A stretch of DNA of 64,000 nucleotides. It comes from Escherichia virus TH15. The DNA lies in the sequence record MT446392.1, one strand, 5' to 3'. Below the pieces are notes generated by a model, which did no database searches, had not been told where the DNA came from, and saw nothing but the letters and a program-made list of their open reading frames with translations. Position 1 is the stretch's first letter. The number at the start of each line of letters is the position of its first letter. Below are positions 15,580 to 53,614 of the stretch, piece after piece. The translations under genes and the position numbers were made by a program.

Positions 15580-16380
15580 TTATAGCCATGGTCCATAGAT
15601 AGTACCTGTTGCTCCCCACATCGGGGATGACACTGCAACAGCTGCACCAGAACCGCCGCCGTCACCTCTTTTAAGGACAGAACCACCGTCGGACCATGCG
15701 TTTTGACCTGCGCCGCCAGCATCACCACCTCGTCCTGAGTGGGCGTTACCGTAATCATATCCGCCACCTGGGCTTTCATAAGAAGCGCCACCGCCAGAAG
15801 AACCGCCCCCACCGCCGGGGCCGAATGGTCTTCCGCCGCCGCCGCCAATATCCTGCCAGTTGGCACCAGAGTGTACTCGATAGGCAATGCCGCCACCGCC
15901 ACCGCCGCCACCGCAGATAACACCATAGTTCCAAATACGGAGTCTATGTCCTATATGGTTAACAATACAATCACCACCCCATTGCCCGTTGCCGTCACCG
16001 CCGGAGTGTGTCCAACCACCTTGCCCACCGCGTCCCCACATGTGAACTCCACCATGAATATTCAAAGTAACATATTCGTTAGGAGTATCTCCATTCATAA
16101 AGAATAACGGAACATCACGGGTATAAGATACTAAATCACCTGTGATATTAAACACTATAGGAGCACCACCGGCTTCAAAACAACGGTCACGGAACCATTG
16201 ACCATTAAAGTTATGGTCAGCTCCAAGCGTATGAATAATCTCACGAGAACGACCCGCGAATTGTGACATCCATGAAGGGTTTCCTAAACGAAGTTCCCTC
16301 GAAGCGGCCGACATCCATCTTTGCCCGGTTTCAGCGACGGCTGAAGTCCCAATCCAACCAGGAATTCCTACTACTGCCAT
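15580..16380 (-). CDS. 38: Tail-fibre adhesin gp38 (T2/S16-type, glycine-rich receptor-binding domain)
   Basis: 266 aa directly downstream of gene 37; repeated poly-Gly blocks separated by short variable segments. Confidence 0.75.
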
Positions 16381-46760: not shown

Positions 46761-46790
46761 AGGGACTCTTCGGAGTCCCTTTTTTTTATT
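46761..46790 (+). terminator. Intrinsic terminator downstream of the small basic ORF
   Basis: agggactcttcggagtccct followed by eight T. Confidence 0.8.
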
Positions 46791-48198: not shown

Positions 48199-48411
48199 AT
48201 GTTTAAGAAACTGATTCAGAAAATTTTGGGAACAGAAATGGTTGAAGTGACTTATCGCGTGACTGACGTAAGTCCATGGGCCCGAAATACTGAACCATAT
48301 ACTAAAACAATTAAAATGCTGAAATCTGACGGCGGATTATCTATTAAAGACCGTCTACCTGGTTATGGTCATTGGGCTGATGTAGATATTATCAGTGTCA
48401 AAGATGTCTGA
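48199..48411 (+). CDS. Hypothetical protein
   Basis: ORF with GAGGA SD. Confidence 0.35.
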   Translation: MFKKLIQKILGTEMVEVTYRVTDVSPWARNTEPYTKTIKMLKSDGGLSIKDRLPGYGHWADVDIISVKDV

Positions 48412-48862
48412 GTTAGAAATCAGAAGTAATTTTCCGTGGCCATCATGTGCATTAAGCAACTTTGCTAAATGGCCTTTTGTTATGGAGGGTATCCAGTTTG
48501 GAGGTCTTGAAGGCTTCTTACAAGGGTGCAAGGTGAGAAATCATGAACAACAAAAACGTATATTTGGGATGTCCGGATTGGCCGCCCAGCAAAGTGGAAG
48601 AGCTTATGCAAGAGCTGCGGACCGTGGGACGCTTTTCTGGCTTGGAATTCCCTTTTCAAGATACTCTGCAGCATGGAAAGAGTTGTATACAAATGCATAT
48701 TTTGAAGCAGCGCTCCAGAACCAAGGATTCCGCGATGCGTTACAATCCACAAAAGGCAAAGTTTTAAAGCATTCGATGGCGAGTCACCTTACTGTTCATG
48801 ATACAATATTGACTGAACAAGAATTTATTGACATACTTAACCAATTGAGAGATGCATTATGA
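48404..48862 (+). CDS. NADAR-like (YbiA/DUF1768-like) protein, candidate ADP-ribose-processing enzyme
   Basis: SNFAKWP followed by E-x-F-x-Q-x-x-K resembles the NADAR signature recalled from E. coli YbiA (FSNFAAWP ... SEHYFQAQK). Track start 48395 is GTG. Confidence 0.5.
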   Translation: MSELEIRSNFPWPSCALSNFAKWPFVMEGIQFGGLEGFLQGCKVRNHEQQKRIFGMSGLAAQQSGRAYARAADRGTLFWLGIPFSRYSAAWKELYTNAYFEAALQNQGFRDALQSTKGKVLKHSMASHLTVHDTILTEQEFIDILNQLRDAL

Positions 48863-49683
48863 AACCCGTTATTTTAACAGATATTGATGGCGTATGTTTG
48901 TCATGGCAGTCTGGCTTGCCTTATTTCGCTCAAAAATATAATTTACCCCTGGAACACATCCTTAAGATGATTCAGGATGAAAAATTTGTGACCCCTGGTA
49001 AACTCTTCAATTGTGATGAAGAGTTGGGCGCGCAGTTGATTGAAAAATATAACTGTTCGGACTTTATTCGCTATTTGTCTCCTTATGCGGATGCATTAAG
49101 GGTTATTAATAACATCAAAGAGCAATATGATTTTGTGGCTGTAACAGCCCTGGGTGATTCTATTGATGCTCGCCTGAATCGTCAATTCAACCTGAATGCT
49201 TTGTTCCCTGGGGCATTTAAAGAAGTGATGATGTGTGGTCATACAGCCTCTAAAGAGGAGTTATTTCAGAAGGCAAAAGACAAATATAATGTCATTTGTT
49301 ATATTGATGACCTTGCGCACCATTGCGACCATGCGAGTGAAATTCTTGAGGTTCCGGTTTATTGGATGGCCCGCGGTGAACGTGATGCTATTCCTAAAAC
49401 AGCTTCCAAAGTTTTTAATTGGGACGATGTTGCCGGACAGCTTAAACTGAAACACAAAGATGAACCGGTCAAACCAGAATTCACCCCAGATGAACTCCGT
49501 AAACTGGAAGAGCTGTTTCGTGAAACTCGCCGTCTTCAACAACAAATGCAACAAGGCTGGCAGCCAGGTCAACAATGGACTCCTGGATATAATCCAGCAT
49601 ATCCATATCAATATGGTCAGCGCGTAGGTACTGGCATTGAATACTGGTACAATCAACCAACTGGTGGACAAGGGGGTAATTGA
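48859..49683 (+). CDS. HAD-superfamily phosphatase / nucleotidase-like protein with Q/G/Y-rich C-terminal tail
   Basis: N-terminal ILTDIDGV (HAD motif I); C-terminal 45 aa low complexity (QQQMQQGWQPGQQWTPGYNPAYPYQYGQ...GGQGGN). Confidence 0.55.
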   Translation: MKPVILTDIDGVCLSWQSGLPYFAQKYNLPLEHILKMIQDEKFVTPGKLFNCDEELGAQLIEKYNCSDFIRYLSPYADALRVINNIKEQYDFVAVTALGDSIDARLNRQFNLNALFPGAFKEVMMCGHTASKEELFQKAKDKYNVICYIDDLAHHCDHASEILEVPVYWMARGERDAIPKTASKVFNWDDVAGQLKLKHKDEPVKPEFTPDELRKLEELFRETRRLQQQMQQGWQPGQQWTPGYNPAYPYQYGQRVGTGIEYWYNQPTGGQGGN

Positions 49684-49971: not shown

Positions 49972-51504
49972 ATGATTTTAGATATTTTAAATGAAATTGC
50001 TGCAACCGATTCTACGAAAGAGAAACAAGCTATCCTGGAATCGTATTCTGAAAATGAAACGCTTAAACGTGTGTATCGTTTGACATATTCCAAAGGTATT
50101 CAGTTTTATATCAAGAAATGGCCAAAACCTGGGACAACGACTCAAAGCTTTGGCATGTTGAATATAAGTGATATGCTTGACTTTATCGAATTCACATTAG
50201 CACCTCGTAAATTAACAGGTAATGCTGCAATCGAGGAATTATCGGGTTATATTGCTGATGGTAAAAAAGCAGATGTTGAAGTCCTGCGCCGTGTGATGAT
50301 GCGTGACCTGGAATGTGGTGCATCCGTATCGATTGCGAATAAAGTTTGGAAAGGCTTAATTCCTGAACAACCGCAGATGCTCGCTTCTTCCTATGATGAA
50401 GCTGGTATTGCCAAGAACATTAAGTTCCCGGCCTTTGCGCAATTGAAAGCCGACGGCGCTCGGTGCTTTGCAGAAGTTCGTGGCGATGAGTTGGATGATG
50501 TTCGATTGTTATCCCGAGCCGGTAACGAATACCTCAAGCTTGACCTTCTTAAAAAGGAATTGATTGAAGCCACCCGTGAAGCGCGTGAGAGACATCCTGA
50601 GGGCGTTTTGATTGATGGCGAGTTAGTATATCATGAACAGAAAACAGTTGCCCAGGATGATGGTTTGGCCTTTCTTTTTGACGATACAGAGCAAGCCGAG
50701 ACTCAAATTGAATCTGCGGAATCTCGTACTAAGTCAAACGGTCTAGCGAACAAATCATTAAAAGGAACTATCACTGCGGTTGAAGCAGCTGGCATGAAAT
50801 TCCAGGTCTGGGATTATGTTCCGTTGATTGAAGTGTATTCAGATGTTAAAATTCTTAACCCTCTGAAATATGATGTGCGGTTCGCGGTATTAGAGAAGAT
50901 GATTGCAGATAACGTGGTGCTTCATGGCTACGACCGTATGATTCTGATTGAAAACCACGTGGTTAATAACCTCGAAGAAGCCAAAGCCATCTATAAGAAA
51001 TATATTGCTTTAAAGCTCGAAGGTATTATTCTTAAAAACACTGCAGCTCCTTGGGAAAACAAGCGCTCTAAGAATATGTACAAGTTCAAAGAAGTTATTG
51101 ACATCGCTTTGGAAATTATCGGATTCTATGAGCACGAGAAAGACCCAAATAAAATTGGTGGTGTTGTGCTTCAATCTTCTTGCGGTAAAATTGTTACCAA
51201 TTGTGGGTCAGGCTTCAAAGATACAACACAAGTCAAAGACCCGAAGACTAAGAAATGGACTATTATCCCAATTGATGAGCGTCATGAAATGGACCGCGAA
51301 GCTCTTATGATTAAGGCTTGCAAAGGTGAATTAGTTGGAATGATTGCTGATTGTGAATGTAATGGTTGGTTAACTTCTGAAACTCGTAAAGATAATACTG
51401 TTAAACTGTTTCTTCCGATTATCAAAGGGTTCAGATTCGATAAAGATAAGGCAGATACTTTCGAAGAAGTATTTGGCGACTGGTCACAGACGGGGTTAAA
51501 ATAA
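49972..51504 (+). CDS. 30: ATP-dependent DNA ligase
   Basis: 510 aa; long stretches identical to remembered T4 ligase, including adenylation lysine motif QLKADGARCFAEVRGDELDDVRLLSRAGNEYL. Confidence 0.95.
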   Translation: MILDILNEIAATDSTKEKQAILESYSENETLKRVYRLTYSKGIQFYIKKWPKPGTTTQSFGMLNISDMLDFIEFTLAPRKLTGNAAIEELSGYIADGKKADVEVLRRVMMRDLECGASVSIANKVWKGLIPEQPQMLASSYDEAGIAKNIKFPAFAQLKADGARCFAEVRGDELDDVRLLSRAGNEYLKLDLLKKELIEATREARERHPEGVLIDGELVYHEQKTVAQDDGLAFLFDDTEQAETQIESAESRTKSNGLANKSLKGTITAVEAAGMKFQVWDYVPLIEVYSDVKILNPLKYDVRFAVLEKMIADNVVLHGYDRMILIENHVVNNLEEAKAIYKKYIALKLEGIILKNTAAPWENKRSKNMYKFKEVIDIALEIIGFYEHEKDPNKIGGVVLQSSCGKIVTNCGSGFKDTTQVKDPKTKKWTIIPIDERHEMDREALMIKACKGELVGMIADCECNGWLTSETRKDNTVKLFLPIIKGFRFDKDKADTFEEVFGDWSQTGLK

Positions 51505-51562: not shown

Positions 51563-53614
51563 ATGTCTGAACAATTAAATGAACTCTTTGACAAATATAT
51601 CGAAACCTTCGGTTATCCTGTCATTAATATGAATCCAAAATACAAGGTCCCACAGGTTTGGCAATTCGGTGTTCCTGGGACCAATTCTCTTATGGCCCGT
51701 TTGATGCAATTCACGGGCAAAGAAACAGTTAAACAATATAAACGTGGTGATGCAATTGCCGAGGTATTCCTGCTCTCCGGGACTTCACACGGTCATGCTG
51801 TTCCTCTGAAGGGTGGCCTAGGTGAAAAACCTCTTGATGCGATTAACCTGATTTTTACCACAGTCTGGGAAAGTATCAAACTAGGCAAACCTGATGTAGT
51901 CTTGTTCCGTTTCCCCTCCAAAAAGATGAAAGGTCAAGAGCAAGCTGTTATTCGTATTATGAATCGACTGATTCAAATGAAAACTTCCGGGCGTTATCAT
52001 GTTCTTCCGAATGCATCTGGTCTCGGTAAAAAGAACGCTTATGTAATTATGTACAAAAAGGGTGTTGACCTACTGTCGGTTGATGGTATGCCTCCAGTCC
52101 CTGAGAAATATCAAAAAGTCACAACAAAAGTTGGCGACGTATTCACCAATAAAGATAACGGTGCACAAGTCTCCAAACAAGAAATCGCAGCCGAAGTTCT
52201 GATTGATGCCGCAAACAAAAAGACCGATGCTTCTGTTGCACAGAAAACTAAAATCAGTCGCCGAGCTATTGCACAAGCCCAGTATGCACCAAATGAGAAT
52301 GTCCCAGAAGGTTGGGATGAAATTGATGCAGAAGCTGCTAAATTTAGTCGACCTGCGACTGCTGAATTAATTGATGATGCCGAAGAACTGGAAATTTTTG
52401 TTCGACCTTCTGAAACGAATACTATGGCACGTATGCGCGCAGCAGATATGGCTATGCGAGCAAATGGTGTTTGGAAAGAAGAAATTCGTGTTGAAGACAC
52501 TGACCCAATTTTTAACCGTATGCACCGTGAACTTAAACGTGCTCCAGTCGGCAGTATGAAGCAGATGCAGATTTTTGCCGAATCATGTGCAGAAATTCTT
52601 AACCTTCGTAAAGCTGCATTTATCGAAAGAAAAATGAATGATGCTCCCCCTAACCTGGATGCAGCCACTTATGCAGCCACGCTCTGGGAAGAAGAATACA
52701 CAAGCGCCATTCGTGTTGCAGTTAAAGACTTTGCCGAAGAAGCATCAGAAAATACTCTTAATTTCACAGCAGGGTATACTGACAACCGTTTCCATTATGG
52801 CCAGCGAGAAGCAATTGCAGATTATTGTGGAGCAAACTATGTCGATATTAATAATTATTTGATGGGTAATTATTATGAAGAAGATGCTGAATTCCTAAAT
52901 CTGGACAGAGTTGTCGAAACAATTAAGGAATTGGATTCGGCCTTTGAAATTGGACATAAGTTGCCACCCGATACAACTCTTTGGCGTGGTCAATATTTAA
53001 ATGTTCCTACATTTAATAAAATTAAGCAATCGAAATTATTTTATTTCAGGAACTATGTATCAACGTCGTTTAAACCGATTATCTTTGGTGGCTGGGTGGC
53101 GAACGTTGCTATGGCCGCAGTTCATCAGGACTATCGTGATGGGACATCTTTCCAGGCTGATGACGAAATTGTTTTACCAAATATTCCGGGTGCAAACCCA
53201 GATAACGCAATGATTCATGTTGGTTGGAAAATTTCTGGGGCGGACTTAATTAACGTAATTGTTCCCGGCGAATTGTCAGGAAACCCGACCGAGCAAGAAG
53301 TTATTCTTCCTCGTGGAACTATAGTTAAGATTACAAAGATTACGGATGCGTCGTATCAAGGAAATGCGAACGTCAAAATGCTGGAAGCGGATATCCAGAC
53401 CACTGACCAACTGGATGAAAATGCAGTTATCTATGATGGTGATGTGTTGATGGAAACTGGCGAGCTTGTCGTTTATAAAGGCGAGGAACCAGAAGAATCT
53501 GTTGACTTCGCATCGTTTGCATCCTCCAGGGTGACGAAGAAAGTCAACCAAGGCCTTGGTATTCTTGCTAGTTGTATTAATTTGGAAAGTATTCCTCCTA
53601 AATTCCTTTCATAG
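51563..53614 (+). CDS. alt: ADP-ribosyltransferase Alt-like (virion-packaged ART)
   Basis: 683 aa versus T4 682 aa, adjacent to ligase as in T4; late promoter upstream; C-terminal ART-type R / STS / ExE motifs (FRNYVSTSF, EQEVILPRG). Confidence 0.75.
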   Translation: MSEQLNELFDKYIETFGYPVINMNPKYKVPQVWQFGVPGTNSLMARLMQFTGKETVKQYKRGDAIAEVFLLSGTSHGHAVPLKGGLGEKPLDAINLIFTTVWESIKLGKPDVVLFRFPSKKMKGQEQAVIRIMNRLIQMKTSGRYHVLPNASGLGKKNAYVIMYKKGVDLLSVDGMPPVPEKYQKVTTKVGDVFTNKDNGAQVSKQEIAAEVLIDAANKKTDASVAQKTKISRRAIAQAQYAPNENVPEGWDEIDAEAAKFSRPATAELIDDAEELEIFVRPSETNTMARMRAADMAMRANGVWKEEIRVEDTDPIFNRMHRELKRAPVGSMKQMQIFAESCAEILNLRKAAFIERKMNDAPPNLDAATYAATLWEEEYTSAIRVAVKDFAEEASENTLNFTAGYTDNRFHYGQREAIADYCGANYVDINNYLMGNYYEEDAEFLNLDRVVETIKELDSAFEIGHKLPPDTTLWRGQYLNVPTFNKIKQSKLFYFRNYVSTSFKPIIFGGWVANVAMAAVHQDYRDGTSFQADDEIVLPNIPGANPDNAMIHVGWKISGADLINVIVPGELSGNPTEQEVILPRGTIVKITKITDASYQGNANVKMLEADIQTTDQLDENAVIYDGDVLMETGELVVYKGEEPEESVDFASFASSRVTKKVNQGLGILASCINLESIPPKFLS

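Follow-up and report, generated by a model that had tools for sequence, protein, structure and literature searches.

This analysis concerns two adjoining genes in a 64,000-nucleotide stretch of Escherichia virus TH15 DNA (MT446392.1), which we call the window throughout: the homologs of T4 genes 30.3, now named adfN, and 30.2. The adfN coding sequence (48404-48862) specifies a 152-residue protein predicted to be a NADAR-fold DNA ADP-ribosylglycohydrolase from a PF08010 match, identity to the T4 protein, an AlphaFold2 (AF2) model and a Foldseek search. The 30.2 coding sequence (48859-49683) specifies 274 residues, a predicted HAD phosphatase core followed by a C-terminal extension, and is identified by its match to phrog_420 and its identity to T4 gp30.2. 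Both open reading frames (ORFs) lie on the plus strand, as do all features within them described below, at the positions reported in an earlier annotation made from the nucleotide sequence only (the sequence-only reading). They share an ATGA stop/start overlap (48859-48862) that can be read directly from the DNA and is annotated likewise in T4 and VR7. It is probable, in our judgement, that the 30.3 product of the window is an ortholog of the anti-DarT1 protein AdfN, and that the 30.2 product is a nucleotidase-like HAD protein with a putative docking tail that stands outside the defence against DarTG1. The surrounding locus is that of a T4-like phage, and the 1.76 kb around both ORFs shares 94-97% identity with VR7-type (Gaprivervirus) phages of Escherichia/Yersinia. 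Pfam and PHROG matches, together with synteny with the annotated VR7 and T4 genomes, give the gene order gp31, rIII, 30.9, 30.8, 30.7, 30.6, 30.5, 30.4, 30.3, 30.2, 30.1, DNA ligase (gene 30; 49972-51504; PF01068) and Alt (51563-53614; PF03496). The earlier placement of both genes in a cluster running from rIII to ligase is correct, with rIII and ligase flanking 30.9-30.1.

The adfN product begins MSELEIRSNF and carries the NADAR signature at 48455-48532, from S18-N19-F20 through E36-G-F-L-Q40-G-C-K43 and including the catalytic residues E36 and K43; conservation among homologs, the alignment with YbiA and published T4 mutants support the assignment. The two segments on which the gene had been called NADAR-like, SNFAKWP (S18-N19-F20-A-K-W-P24) and E-x-F-x-Q-x-x-K (E36-G-F38-L-Q40-G-C-K43), are present as described. 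An in-frame upstream GTG at 48395 is also a possible start; the T4 ortholog uses the ATG. Across 43 homologs no variation occurs at E36, S18, N19, F20, F38 or Q40, and conservation of K43 is at least 90%. The window protein aligns with T4 gp30.3/AdfN without gaps over 152/152 residues at 84% identity, and the two are alike in length, E36, K43, the C-terminal helix and the place of the gene between 30.4 and 30.2 (PMC11825919). They differ by 24 substitutions, mostly conservative, and the window lineage is Gaprivervirus-like. The C-terminal helix (residues 138-151/152; 48815-48859) is intact, as judged from the AF2 helix at residues 138-151 and the full-length T4 alignment, and the frameshift of RB69 adfN is absent. 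On the strength of identity, full length and synteny with T4 and VR7, we regard ORF 48404-48862 as an intact adfN ortholog. A 74-residue ORF in another frame within adfN (48543-48767, plus strand) corresponds to 30.3' of T4 and VR7, which is annotated as 'internal translation in a different reading frame'. Identity between the window and T4 at third codon positions is 0.64 in the 30.3' overlap, 0.70 in the upstream flank and 0.45 in the downstream flank, which does not clearly point to a constraint from dual coding on 30.3'.

Assignment to the NADAR family draws on several searches. In a Pfam scan the adfN product matched PF08010 (Phage_30_3; E=3.6e-63), and a profile built from the 43-sequence 30.3 family matched E. 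coli YbiA (2b3w) at E=0.0036 over the SNF...E.FQ..K segment, covering YbiA residues 29-83. The AF2 model is of high confidence, with a predicted local distance difference test score (pLDDT) of 94.1 and a predicted template-modelling score of 0.89. Its three best Foldseek matches in the PDB are all NADAR structures, namely YbiA (2b3w; E=2.6e-4, template-modelling score 0.68), the Phytophthora protein PnNADAR with ADP-ribose (8bau) and the Geobacter lovleyi NADAR (8bat), with probabilities of 0.97-1.00 for the trio and no other fold at E<3.5. Weighing against this assignment, the window protein has no match to PF08719 (NADAR) at E<=1 in the Pfam scan, no NADAR match in NCBIfam, and reaches no threshold among the PADLOC models. 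A single-sequence PDB search with gp30.3 also returned no match. Several 30.3 homologs carry both PF08010 and PF08719. The grounds for placing the window protein among the NADAR proteins are its fold, transitive sequence links and orthology. The sequence-only reading, which had made the NADAR call, had also proposed profile searches and structure prediction as checks. The first bears it out in part, since the 30.3 family profile reaches YbiA but neither of the two window proteins itself matches a PF08719 or HAD model; in the second, YbiA is the best PDB match and E36 and K43 are in place.

The function of the T4 ortholog has been established experimentally. T4 gp30.3, renamed AdfN, is required, and suffices, for DarTG1 resistance (PMC11257639, PMC11825919, Nat Commun 2025) and strips ADP-ribose from DarT1-modified DNA in vitro (PMC11257639, PMC11825919), and the substitutions E36A and K43A impair it (PMC11825919). 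In RB69, a frameshift in adfN removes the last 15 residues, which form the C-terminal helix; activity is reduced and RB69 is DarTG1-sensitive (PMC11825919). Ectopic AdfN alone rescues RB69, and T4 AdfN could not substitute for the DarG1 antitoxin in uninfected cells (PMC11257639, PMC11825919). The HIDEN-SEQ transposon screen of T4 under DarTG1 gave a log2 fold change of -7.25 for 30.3 (adjusted p = 0), and the only other significant gene was 30.4 (log2 fold change -1.79, adjusted p = 0.014; bioRxiv 10.1101/2025.11.20.689424). The 30.4 homolog of the window occupies 48199-48411 (plus strand) and overlaps the adfN start by 8 nt. With such an overlap, the depletion of T4 30.4 in the screen may reflect a polar effect on adfN translation and not a separate role for 30.4. 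A 2022 survey found that NADAR genes of T4-like phages are expressed early, alongside the ADP-ribosyltransferases of these phages (PMC9503650). The counter-defence role against DarT that the sequence-only reading had considered plausible is therefore right, since experiments on the T4 ortholog have demonstrated it (PMC11825919; HIDEN-SEQ); ADP-ribose recycling, its alternative, finds no support. Phage NADAR proteins as anti-DarT counter-defence were already published in 2024-2025, and the window copy is an ordinary intact ortholog.

In the mechanism that emerges, AdfN would be a small NADAR-fold N-glycosidase that acts alone, an 'orphan antitoxin'. During infection it would remove the ADP-ribose that host DarT1 puts on guanine in phage DNA, and the de-ADP-ribosylated DNA would allow replication to proceed in DarTG1 cells. 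We infer the same mechanism for the window protein because it has been shown for T4 and the two proteins are 84% identical, with catalytic residues and C-terminal helix intact. Since E36, K43 and the full C-terminus are kept, the window AdfN is predicted to be active. It is very unlikely that the main substrates of the protein are instead soluble derivatives of ADP-ribose or intermediates of the riboflavin pathway, as for YbiA, and not ADP-ribosylated DNA. YbiA, a PF08719 NADAR/DUF1768 protein that is 18% identical to the window protein, shares its SNF...E.FQ..K segment and is reported to be an N-glycosidase of riboflavin intermediates (per PMC9503650), is indeed the best structural match, and the window protein weakly matches TIGR02464, a model for riboflavin N-glycosidase (E=0.13). 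The T4 ortholog, however, removes ADP-ribose from DNA in vitro and determines DarTG1 resistance, and the window protein is 84% identical to it and has the same catalytic residues. The DarG1-type NADAR of Geobacter lovleyi (8bat) and the Phytophthora NADAR (8bau) share the fold, at Foldseek ranks 2-3, and according to the literature likewise strip guanine of ADP-ribose. They show ~16% identity to the phage protein and are longer (189-219 residues against 152). Unlike DarG1, phage AdfN is not encoded beside a DarT toxin.

The intact adfN gene predicts that this phage is resistant to DarTG1, which is useful for choosing or engineering T4-like phages. Several adfN alleles in the databases are truncated, as in the DarTG1-sensitive RB69. 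We noted five clusters of broken alleles comprising 27 member sequences (P0118, P0127, P0129, P0130 and P0133). N-terminal truncations to 126, 109 or 91 residues have cost some of them SNF and/or E36/K43; a C-terminal truncation leaves another with 89 residues, and in one a frameshift has made a chimera that joins 30.3' with 30.3. Phages carrying such alleles may be sensitive to DarTG1 like RB69, or else the ORFs may have been miscalled.

The sequence-only reading had described adfN as translationally coupled to its HAD-like neighbour and so implied a link between the two. We give little credence to a functional pair in which the ADP-ribose set free by AdfN (or a phosphorylated derivative) would pass to the phosphatase for processing, or counter-defence would need the phosphatase in some other way. 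The ATGA overlap fits such a pair, as do the distribution of the genes, each present across the same host spectrum in about 1,440-1,510 phage records, and their adjacency in T4, VR7 and fPS-90. The overlap is real but not specific, being paralleled by overlaps of 8 nt between 30.4 and 30.3 and of 1 nt between 30.2 and 30.1; the coupling is a property of the whole 30.8-to-30 cluster, in which each gene abuts or overlaps its neighbour. Nor is the adjacency general, since 30.3 and 30.2 lie ~96 kb apart in KVP40 and, by their locus-tag numbers (gp227 and gp293), are distant in EcS1; in a Klebsiella phage they are spaced by ~0.5 kb. Insertions in T4 30.2 were neutral under DarTG1 (log2 fold change -0.12, p=0.61) in HIDEN-SEQ, whereas insertions in 30.3 were lost. 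The rescue of RB69 by ectopic AdfN alone points the same way, and ADP-ribose, the product of the NADAR reaction, is not an obvious substrate for a HAD phosphomonoesterase. We found no HAD link in the NARP3 paper. The evidence thus speaks against a functional pairing of 30.3 and 30.2, at least against DarTG1. Their adjacency would instead be part of the tight packing of the early 30.8-to-30 cluster, with no dedicated two-gene module.

The 30.2 product starts MKPVILTDIDGV and matches phrog_420, a PHROG of unknown function, at E=2.3e-78. It is 66% identical to T4 gp30.2 overall; no gap interrupts the alignment over the first 195 residues, where conservation is far higher than in the tail. Among 114 close homologs, all those with a named source come from T4-like phages except one Acinetobacter baumannii record, and tblastn found the core in 1,439 phage records. 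Residues 1-199 (48859-49455) form a predicted HAD core with a helical cap, as indicated by the AF2 model (block-mean pLDDT 91-98 over residues 1-190), Foldseek and distant homologs in NT5C. Motif I, D8-I-D10-G-V12 (48880-48894), would supply the nucleophile and acid/base aspartates and was placed by alignment. T96 (49144-49146), at the end of the VTALG strand, and K132 (49252-49254) were put to motifs II and III by position and not by superposition, and the structural role of T96 is presumptive; D150-D151 (49306-49311) forms motif IV. In alignments of 52 and of 47 sequences D8, D10, K132, D150 and D151 are invariant, as are W16, R108, N111 and R172, and T96 is nearly so; D8, D10, K132 and D151 are at least 90% conserved among 142 distant homologs. 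The HAD call made from the ILTDIDGV motif therefore holds, with motifs I-IV conserved and a Rossmannoid HAD fold in the model.

Foldseek returned 108 PDB matches for the gp30.2 model at E<=0.001, and the 50 listed all belong to the HAD superfamily (50/50). The best is cytosolic 5'(3')-deoxyribonucleotidase (cdN; 2jao, E=2.4e-8), and 3bwv, 2i7d and 1q92 are also among the matches. Like gp30.2, the cdN structures 2jao and 2i7d, the mitochondrial enzyme (mdN; 1q92), all of NT5C (PF06941), and the bacterial 3bwv have DxDGV, an aromatic residue eight positions past the first Asp, and then SGL. A weak phmmer alignment with 2jao (E=0.41) pairs D-I-D-G-V-x-x-x-W16-Q-S-G-L with N(D12N)-M-D-G-V-L-A-D-F-E-S-G-L and thereby sets the invariant W16 against the Phe that follows DMDGVLAD in cdN. 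In cdN and mdN, the Phe after motif I stacks on the base. An exhaustive search of 1.84 billion representatives with the core profile gave 1,300 matches; in the best 141 beyond the T4-like set (E<=1.7e-17), Pfam assigned 40 to NT5C, 24 to HAD_2 and 23 to Hydrolase, the best NT5C match being at E=4.2e-10. Many structural neighbours in BFVD are annotated as 5' nucleotidases. We conclude that residues 1 to ~200 of gp30.2 most resemble HAD phosphatases with a helical cap, closest to the 5'(3')-deoxyribonucleotidases of NT5C. To judge by the likeness to nucleotidases, it would most likely dephosphorylate a nucleoside monophosphate or some comparable phosphorylated small metabolite. HAD phosphatases are normally Mg-dependent.

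Several observations count against a nucleotidase assignment. The gp30.2 sequence has no direct match in Pfam, NCBIfam or PADLOC and none in a PDB-profile search, and the family profile likewise leaves the curated HAD sequence models unmatched, only the distant relatives matching HAD_2, Hydrolase and NT5C. The link to NT5C is structural and transitive. The mammalian 5'(3')-deoxyribonucleotidases are 15-18% identical to gp30.2 and do not have the 75-residue helix-plus-disordered extension that it adds. A general phosphatase of deoxynucleoside monophosphates also seems counter-productive, as T4 reuses these nucleotides. A match of the full gp30.2 profile to an amidase in the PDB was rejected as spurious, arising through the low-complexity tail. 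Literature searches on gp30.2 and on phage deoxyribonucleotidases returned nothing relevant and no biochemical data for any gp30.2 ortholog. The T4 gene is non-essential, with insertions recovered at 72/72 sites in the HIDEN-SEQ data (bioRxiv 10.1101/2025.11.20.689424).

With ligase two genes downstream, gp30.2 might alternatively be a PNKP-type HAD polynucleotide 3'-phosphatase that heals nucleic-acid ends for it. A weak match to the polynucleotide-kinase PHROG phrog_415 (E=0.0037), a HAD_PNKP match in one distant homolog and the presence of PNK phosphatase domains among the BFVD neighbours are consistent with this. PNKP-type HADs are not known to have a cap, however, and the gp30.2 model has a helical insert directly after motif I (helices, residues 16-65) that we read as an active-site cap as in small-molecule HADs. 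The best structural and transitive sequence links go to NT5C nucleotidases, and T4-like phages already carry PseT, which together make an end-healing role highly improbable. The evidence narrows gp30.2, a protein of about 1,400 sequenced phages, to a probable NT5C-like small-molecule phosphatase outside DarTG1 counter-defence.

Beyond the core, the extension begins with a predicted helix, residues 210-232 (PDELRKLEELFRETRRLQQQMQQ; 49486-49554), with block-mean pLDDT of 94 and 91 over residues 211-230. It continues as a predicted disordered tail rich in Q, G, Y, P and W (residues 233-274; 49555-49680), for which composition and low confidence agree: block means over residues 231-274 are 72, 60, 48, 53 and 48, and residues 249-255 fall below 50. 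Q, G, Y and P make up 67% of the last 45 residues (Q9, G10, Y6, P5), which also contain three W, and no other 45-residue stretch in the ORFs of at least 100 residues in the window is as rich in these four. The sequence-only reading had pointed to this low-complexity tail as unusual; the tail is real, but it is not unusual for the family, being common though variable in the T4-like phages of enterobacteria. T4 gp30.2 (phrog_420), at the same gene position, has a tail of like architecture, with W-x-T-P-G and GIEY-x-Y-N-x-P-T, whereas the linker is largely rewritten between the two and is Q/G-rich in the window. Extension length ranges from 0 to 148 residues across orthologs and falls into several mutually unrelated classes; the extension is absent from distant lineages (Acinetobacter, Serratia and others). 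By eye, the tails of other clades appear to open with a comparable charged/aliphatic stretch. The runner-up G/Q/Y/P-rich segment of the window lies in a 266-residue ORF (15580-16380, minus strand) with poly-glycine runs, beside an ORF of 1,081 residues. We take it to be a candidate T2-type gp38 adhesin, its neighbour resembling a long-tail-fibre protein, an ordinary arrangement for this phage group.

Two short motifs stand out within the tail. The upstream one, W240-T-P-G243 (49576-49587; family form W-[RKTV]-x-P-G), recurs in T4-type, Klebsiella-type and other tails. The second, G257-T-G-I-E-Y-W-Y-N-Q-P-T268 (49627-49662; family form GTGIEY[LW]xxQPT), is conserved across divergent tails: among 13 of these its E, Y and T are invariant and its G and P at least 90% conserved, and it occurs once in the window. 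T4 and phages of the VR7, Klebsiella and Citrobacter types, with cores only ~50% identical, retain both W-x-x-P-G and GTGIEY[LW]xxQPT. The codons of the motif vary synonymously among lineages, and because these positions differ we take the motif to be selected as peptide and not as DNA; a DNA-level conserved element beneath it is ruled out on the same ground.

A profile of the tail was then set against 5.8 billion proteins, with candidates chosen by shared 5-mers. Besides split gp30.2 fragments it recovered small proteins (73-96 residues) with differing N-terminal parts that end in ...LTGGI[LW]PPSEPxxxPxxGTGIEYLx[RH]QPTSK or close variants. The motif lies no more than 13 residues from the C-terminus in 8/8 of them and the ending is QPTSK in 6/8. 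The Klebsiella-type gp30.2 tail (P0026), GTGIEYLTRQPTSK, and one small protein (P0238), GTGIEYLSRQPTSK, agree at 13/14 residues. Loci for motif-bearing small proteins of 76-96 residues are L003:1698-1928, L018:643-888, L020:327-563, L006:8001-8282 and L022:387-677. The two long contigs are a phage contig (L003) and a prophage (L006), and in both the motif gene stands among small early-type genes; on the three short contigs there is nothing but small genes in runs. The L006 prophage also encodes its own beta-clamp and single-stranded DNA-binding protein a few kb downstream. Scans with the back-translated motif gave no occurrence in 185,579 genomes, only T4-like contigs (6) in IMG/VR, and 4 metagenome contigs, each with members of the small-protein family. 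By these scans the motif is rare outside gp30.2. A literature search on the peptide GIEYL gave nothing relevant.

The extension can thus be pictured as a helix, a disordered linker rich in aromatic residues, proline and glutamine, and the 12-residue motif, which together would form a tether with a docking peptide at its end and might localise gp30.2 to a partner. GTGIEY[LW]xxQPT is most plausibly a putative portable C-terminal docking peptide on a flexible tether. Certain points tell against this. The tail is absent from close relatives of the window protein (P0006 and P0010) and so is dispensable, and the matches of the tail profile outside gp30.2 are weak, with individual E values of 0.56-8.5 and retrieval by 5-mers.

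It is possible, if on the unlikely side, that the tail is labile low-complexity sequence with no specific function, contributing at most generic solubility or condensate behaviour. Its length range, the several unrelated tail types, the tailless close relatives, the low pLDDT and the non-essential nature of 30.2 would all fit. Such a reading would not readily account for the 12-residue motif and W-x-P-G being kept, through synonymous codon changes, where the cores have diverged to ~50% identity, nor for a near-identical peptide (13/14 between P0026 and P0238) on unrelated small proteins.

If the motif is a docking peptide, its partner might be the sliding clamp of T4 gp45 type, so that it would tether the phosphatase to the replisome. 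In T4 the clamp is bound through short, hydrophobic and acidic epitopes carried by linkers that are variable and unstructured (PMC2988020). T4 gp43 ends in ...ASLDFLFG and gp55 in ...PSLDFLYEAND, the epitope of gp33 is ...TLDFLL, and GIEYLY of T4 gp30.2 and GIEYWY of the window follow the same pattern of aliphatic, acidic, aromatic, L/W and aromatic residues. In a set of 408 T4 ORFs this pattern falls within the last 30 residues of gp43, gp55 and gp30.2 only, and one prophage with a motif-bearing small protein has its own beta-clamp. The pattern was, however, defined after both sequences had been seen, and the probability of a chance extra match is ~0.2. The epitope [ST]-L-D-F-L-[FYL] itself is absent from gp30.2, in which G-I-E-Y-[LW]-Y is similar by residue class only; between LDFL[FYL] and IEY[LW]Y the sole identical residue is L. 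The fifth, aromatic position is missing in most clades (GIEYLN/T/S), nothing in known clamp epitopes corresponds to the invariant QPT, and the gp30.2 motif is not at the extreme C-terminus, 6-12 further residues and the QPT lying beyond its core. The recovered stretches of the non-T4 motif contigs hold no gp45-type clamp. We consider clamp binding improbable on these grounds. More broadly, it is a tentative idea, and an unlikely one as it stands, that gp30.2 and the unrelated small early phage proteins use the peptide to reach one shared hub, be it the sliding clamp or a replisome component or some other host machine. Mimicry of the FtsZ C-terminal peptide (YLxRQ against FLRKQ) and of the GroES mobile loop (the TGGILPP stretch of the small proteins) was dropped, the similarity to the consensus sequence being loose in each case.

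The only new element of this locus is the conserved tail peptide common to gp30.2 and unrelated small proteins, which offers a handle for finding partner proteins. Were such docking at a shared hub true, the gp30.2 phosphatase would be brought to one specific place in the cell, and the motif would stand for a class of short linear motif new to phage biology.

Further observations concern the cluster as a whole. A strong terminator-like hairpin (46761-46780, plus strand) lies directly 3' of the 30.9 homolog, with an 8 bp stem including 5 GC pairs and a T-run, and suggests that 30.8 through 30 form a transcription unit separate from rIII/30.9. Two database proteins are natural chimeras: in P0245 the gp30.7 N-terminus runs into the final ~20 residues of the gp30.2 tail, implying that everything from 30.6 through most of 30.2 has been deleted, and P0021 is a gp30.2-gp30.1 fusion. 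From these two, the cluster, represented here by relatives of the segment 47313-49961, appears prone to internal deletions.

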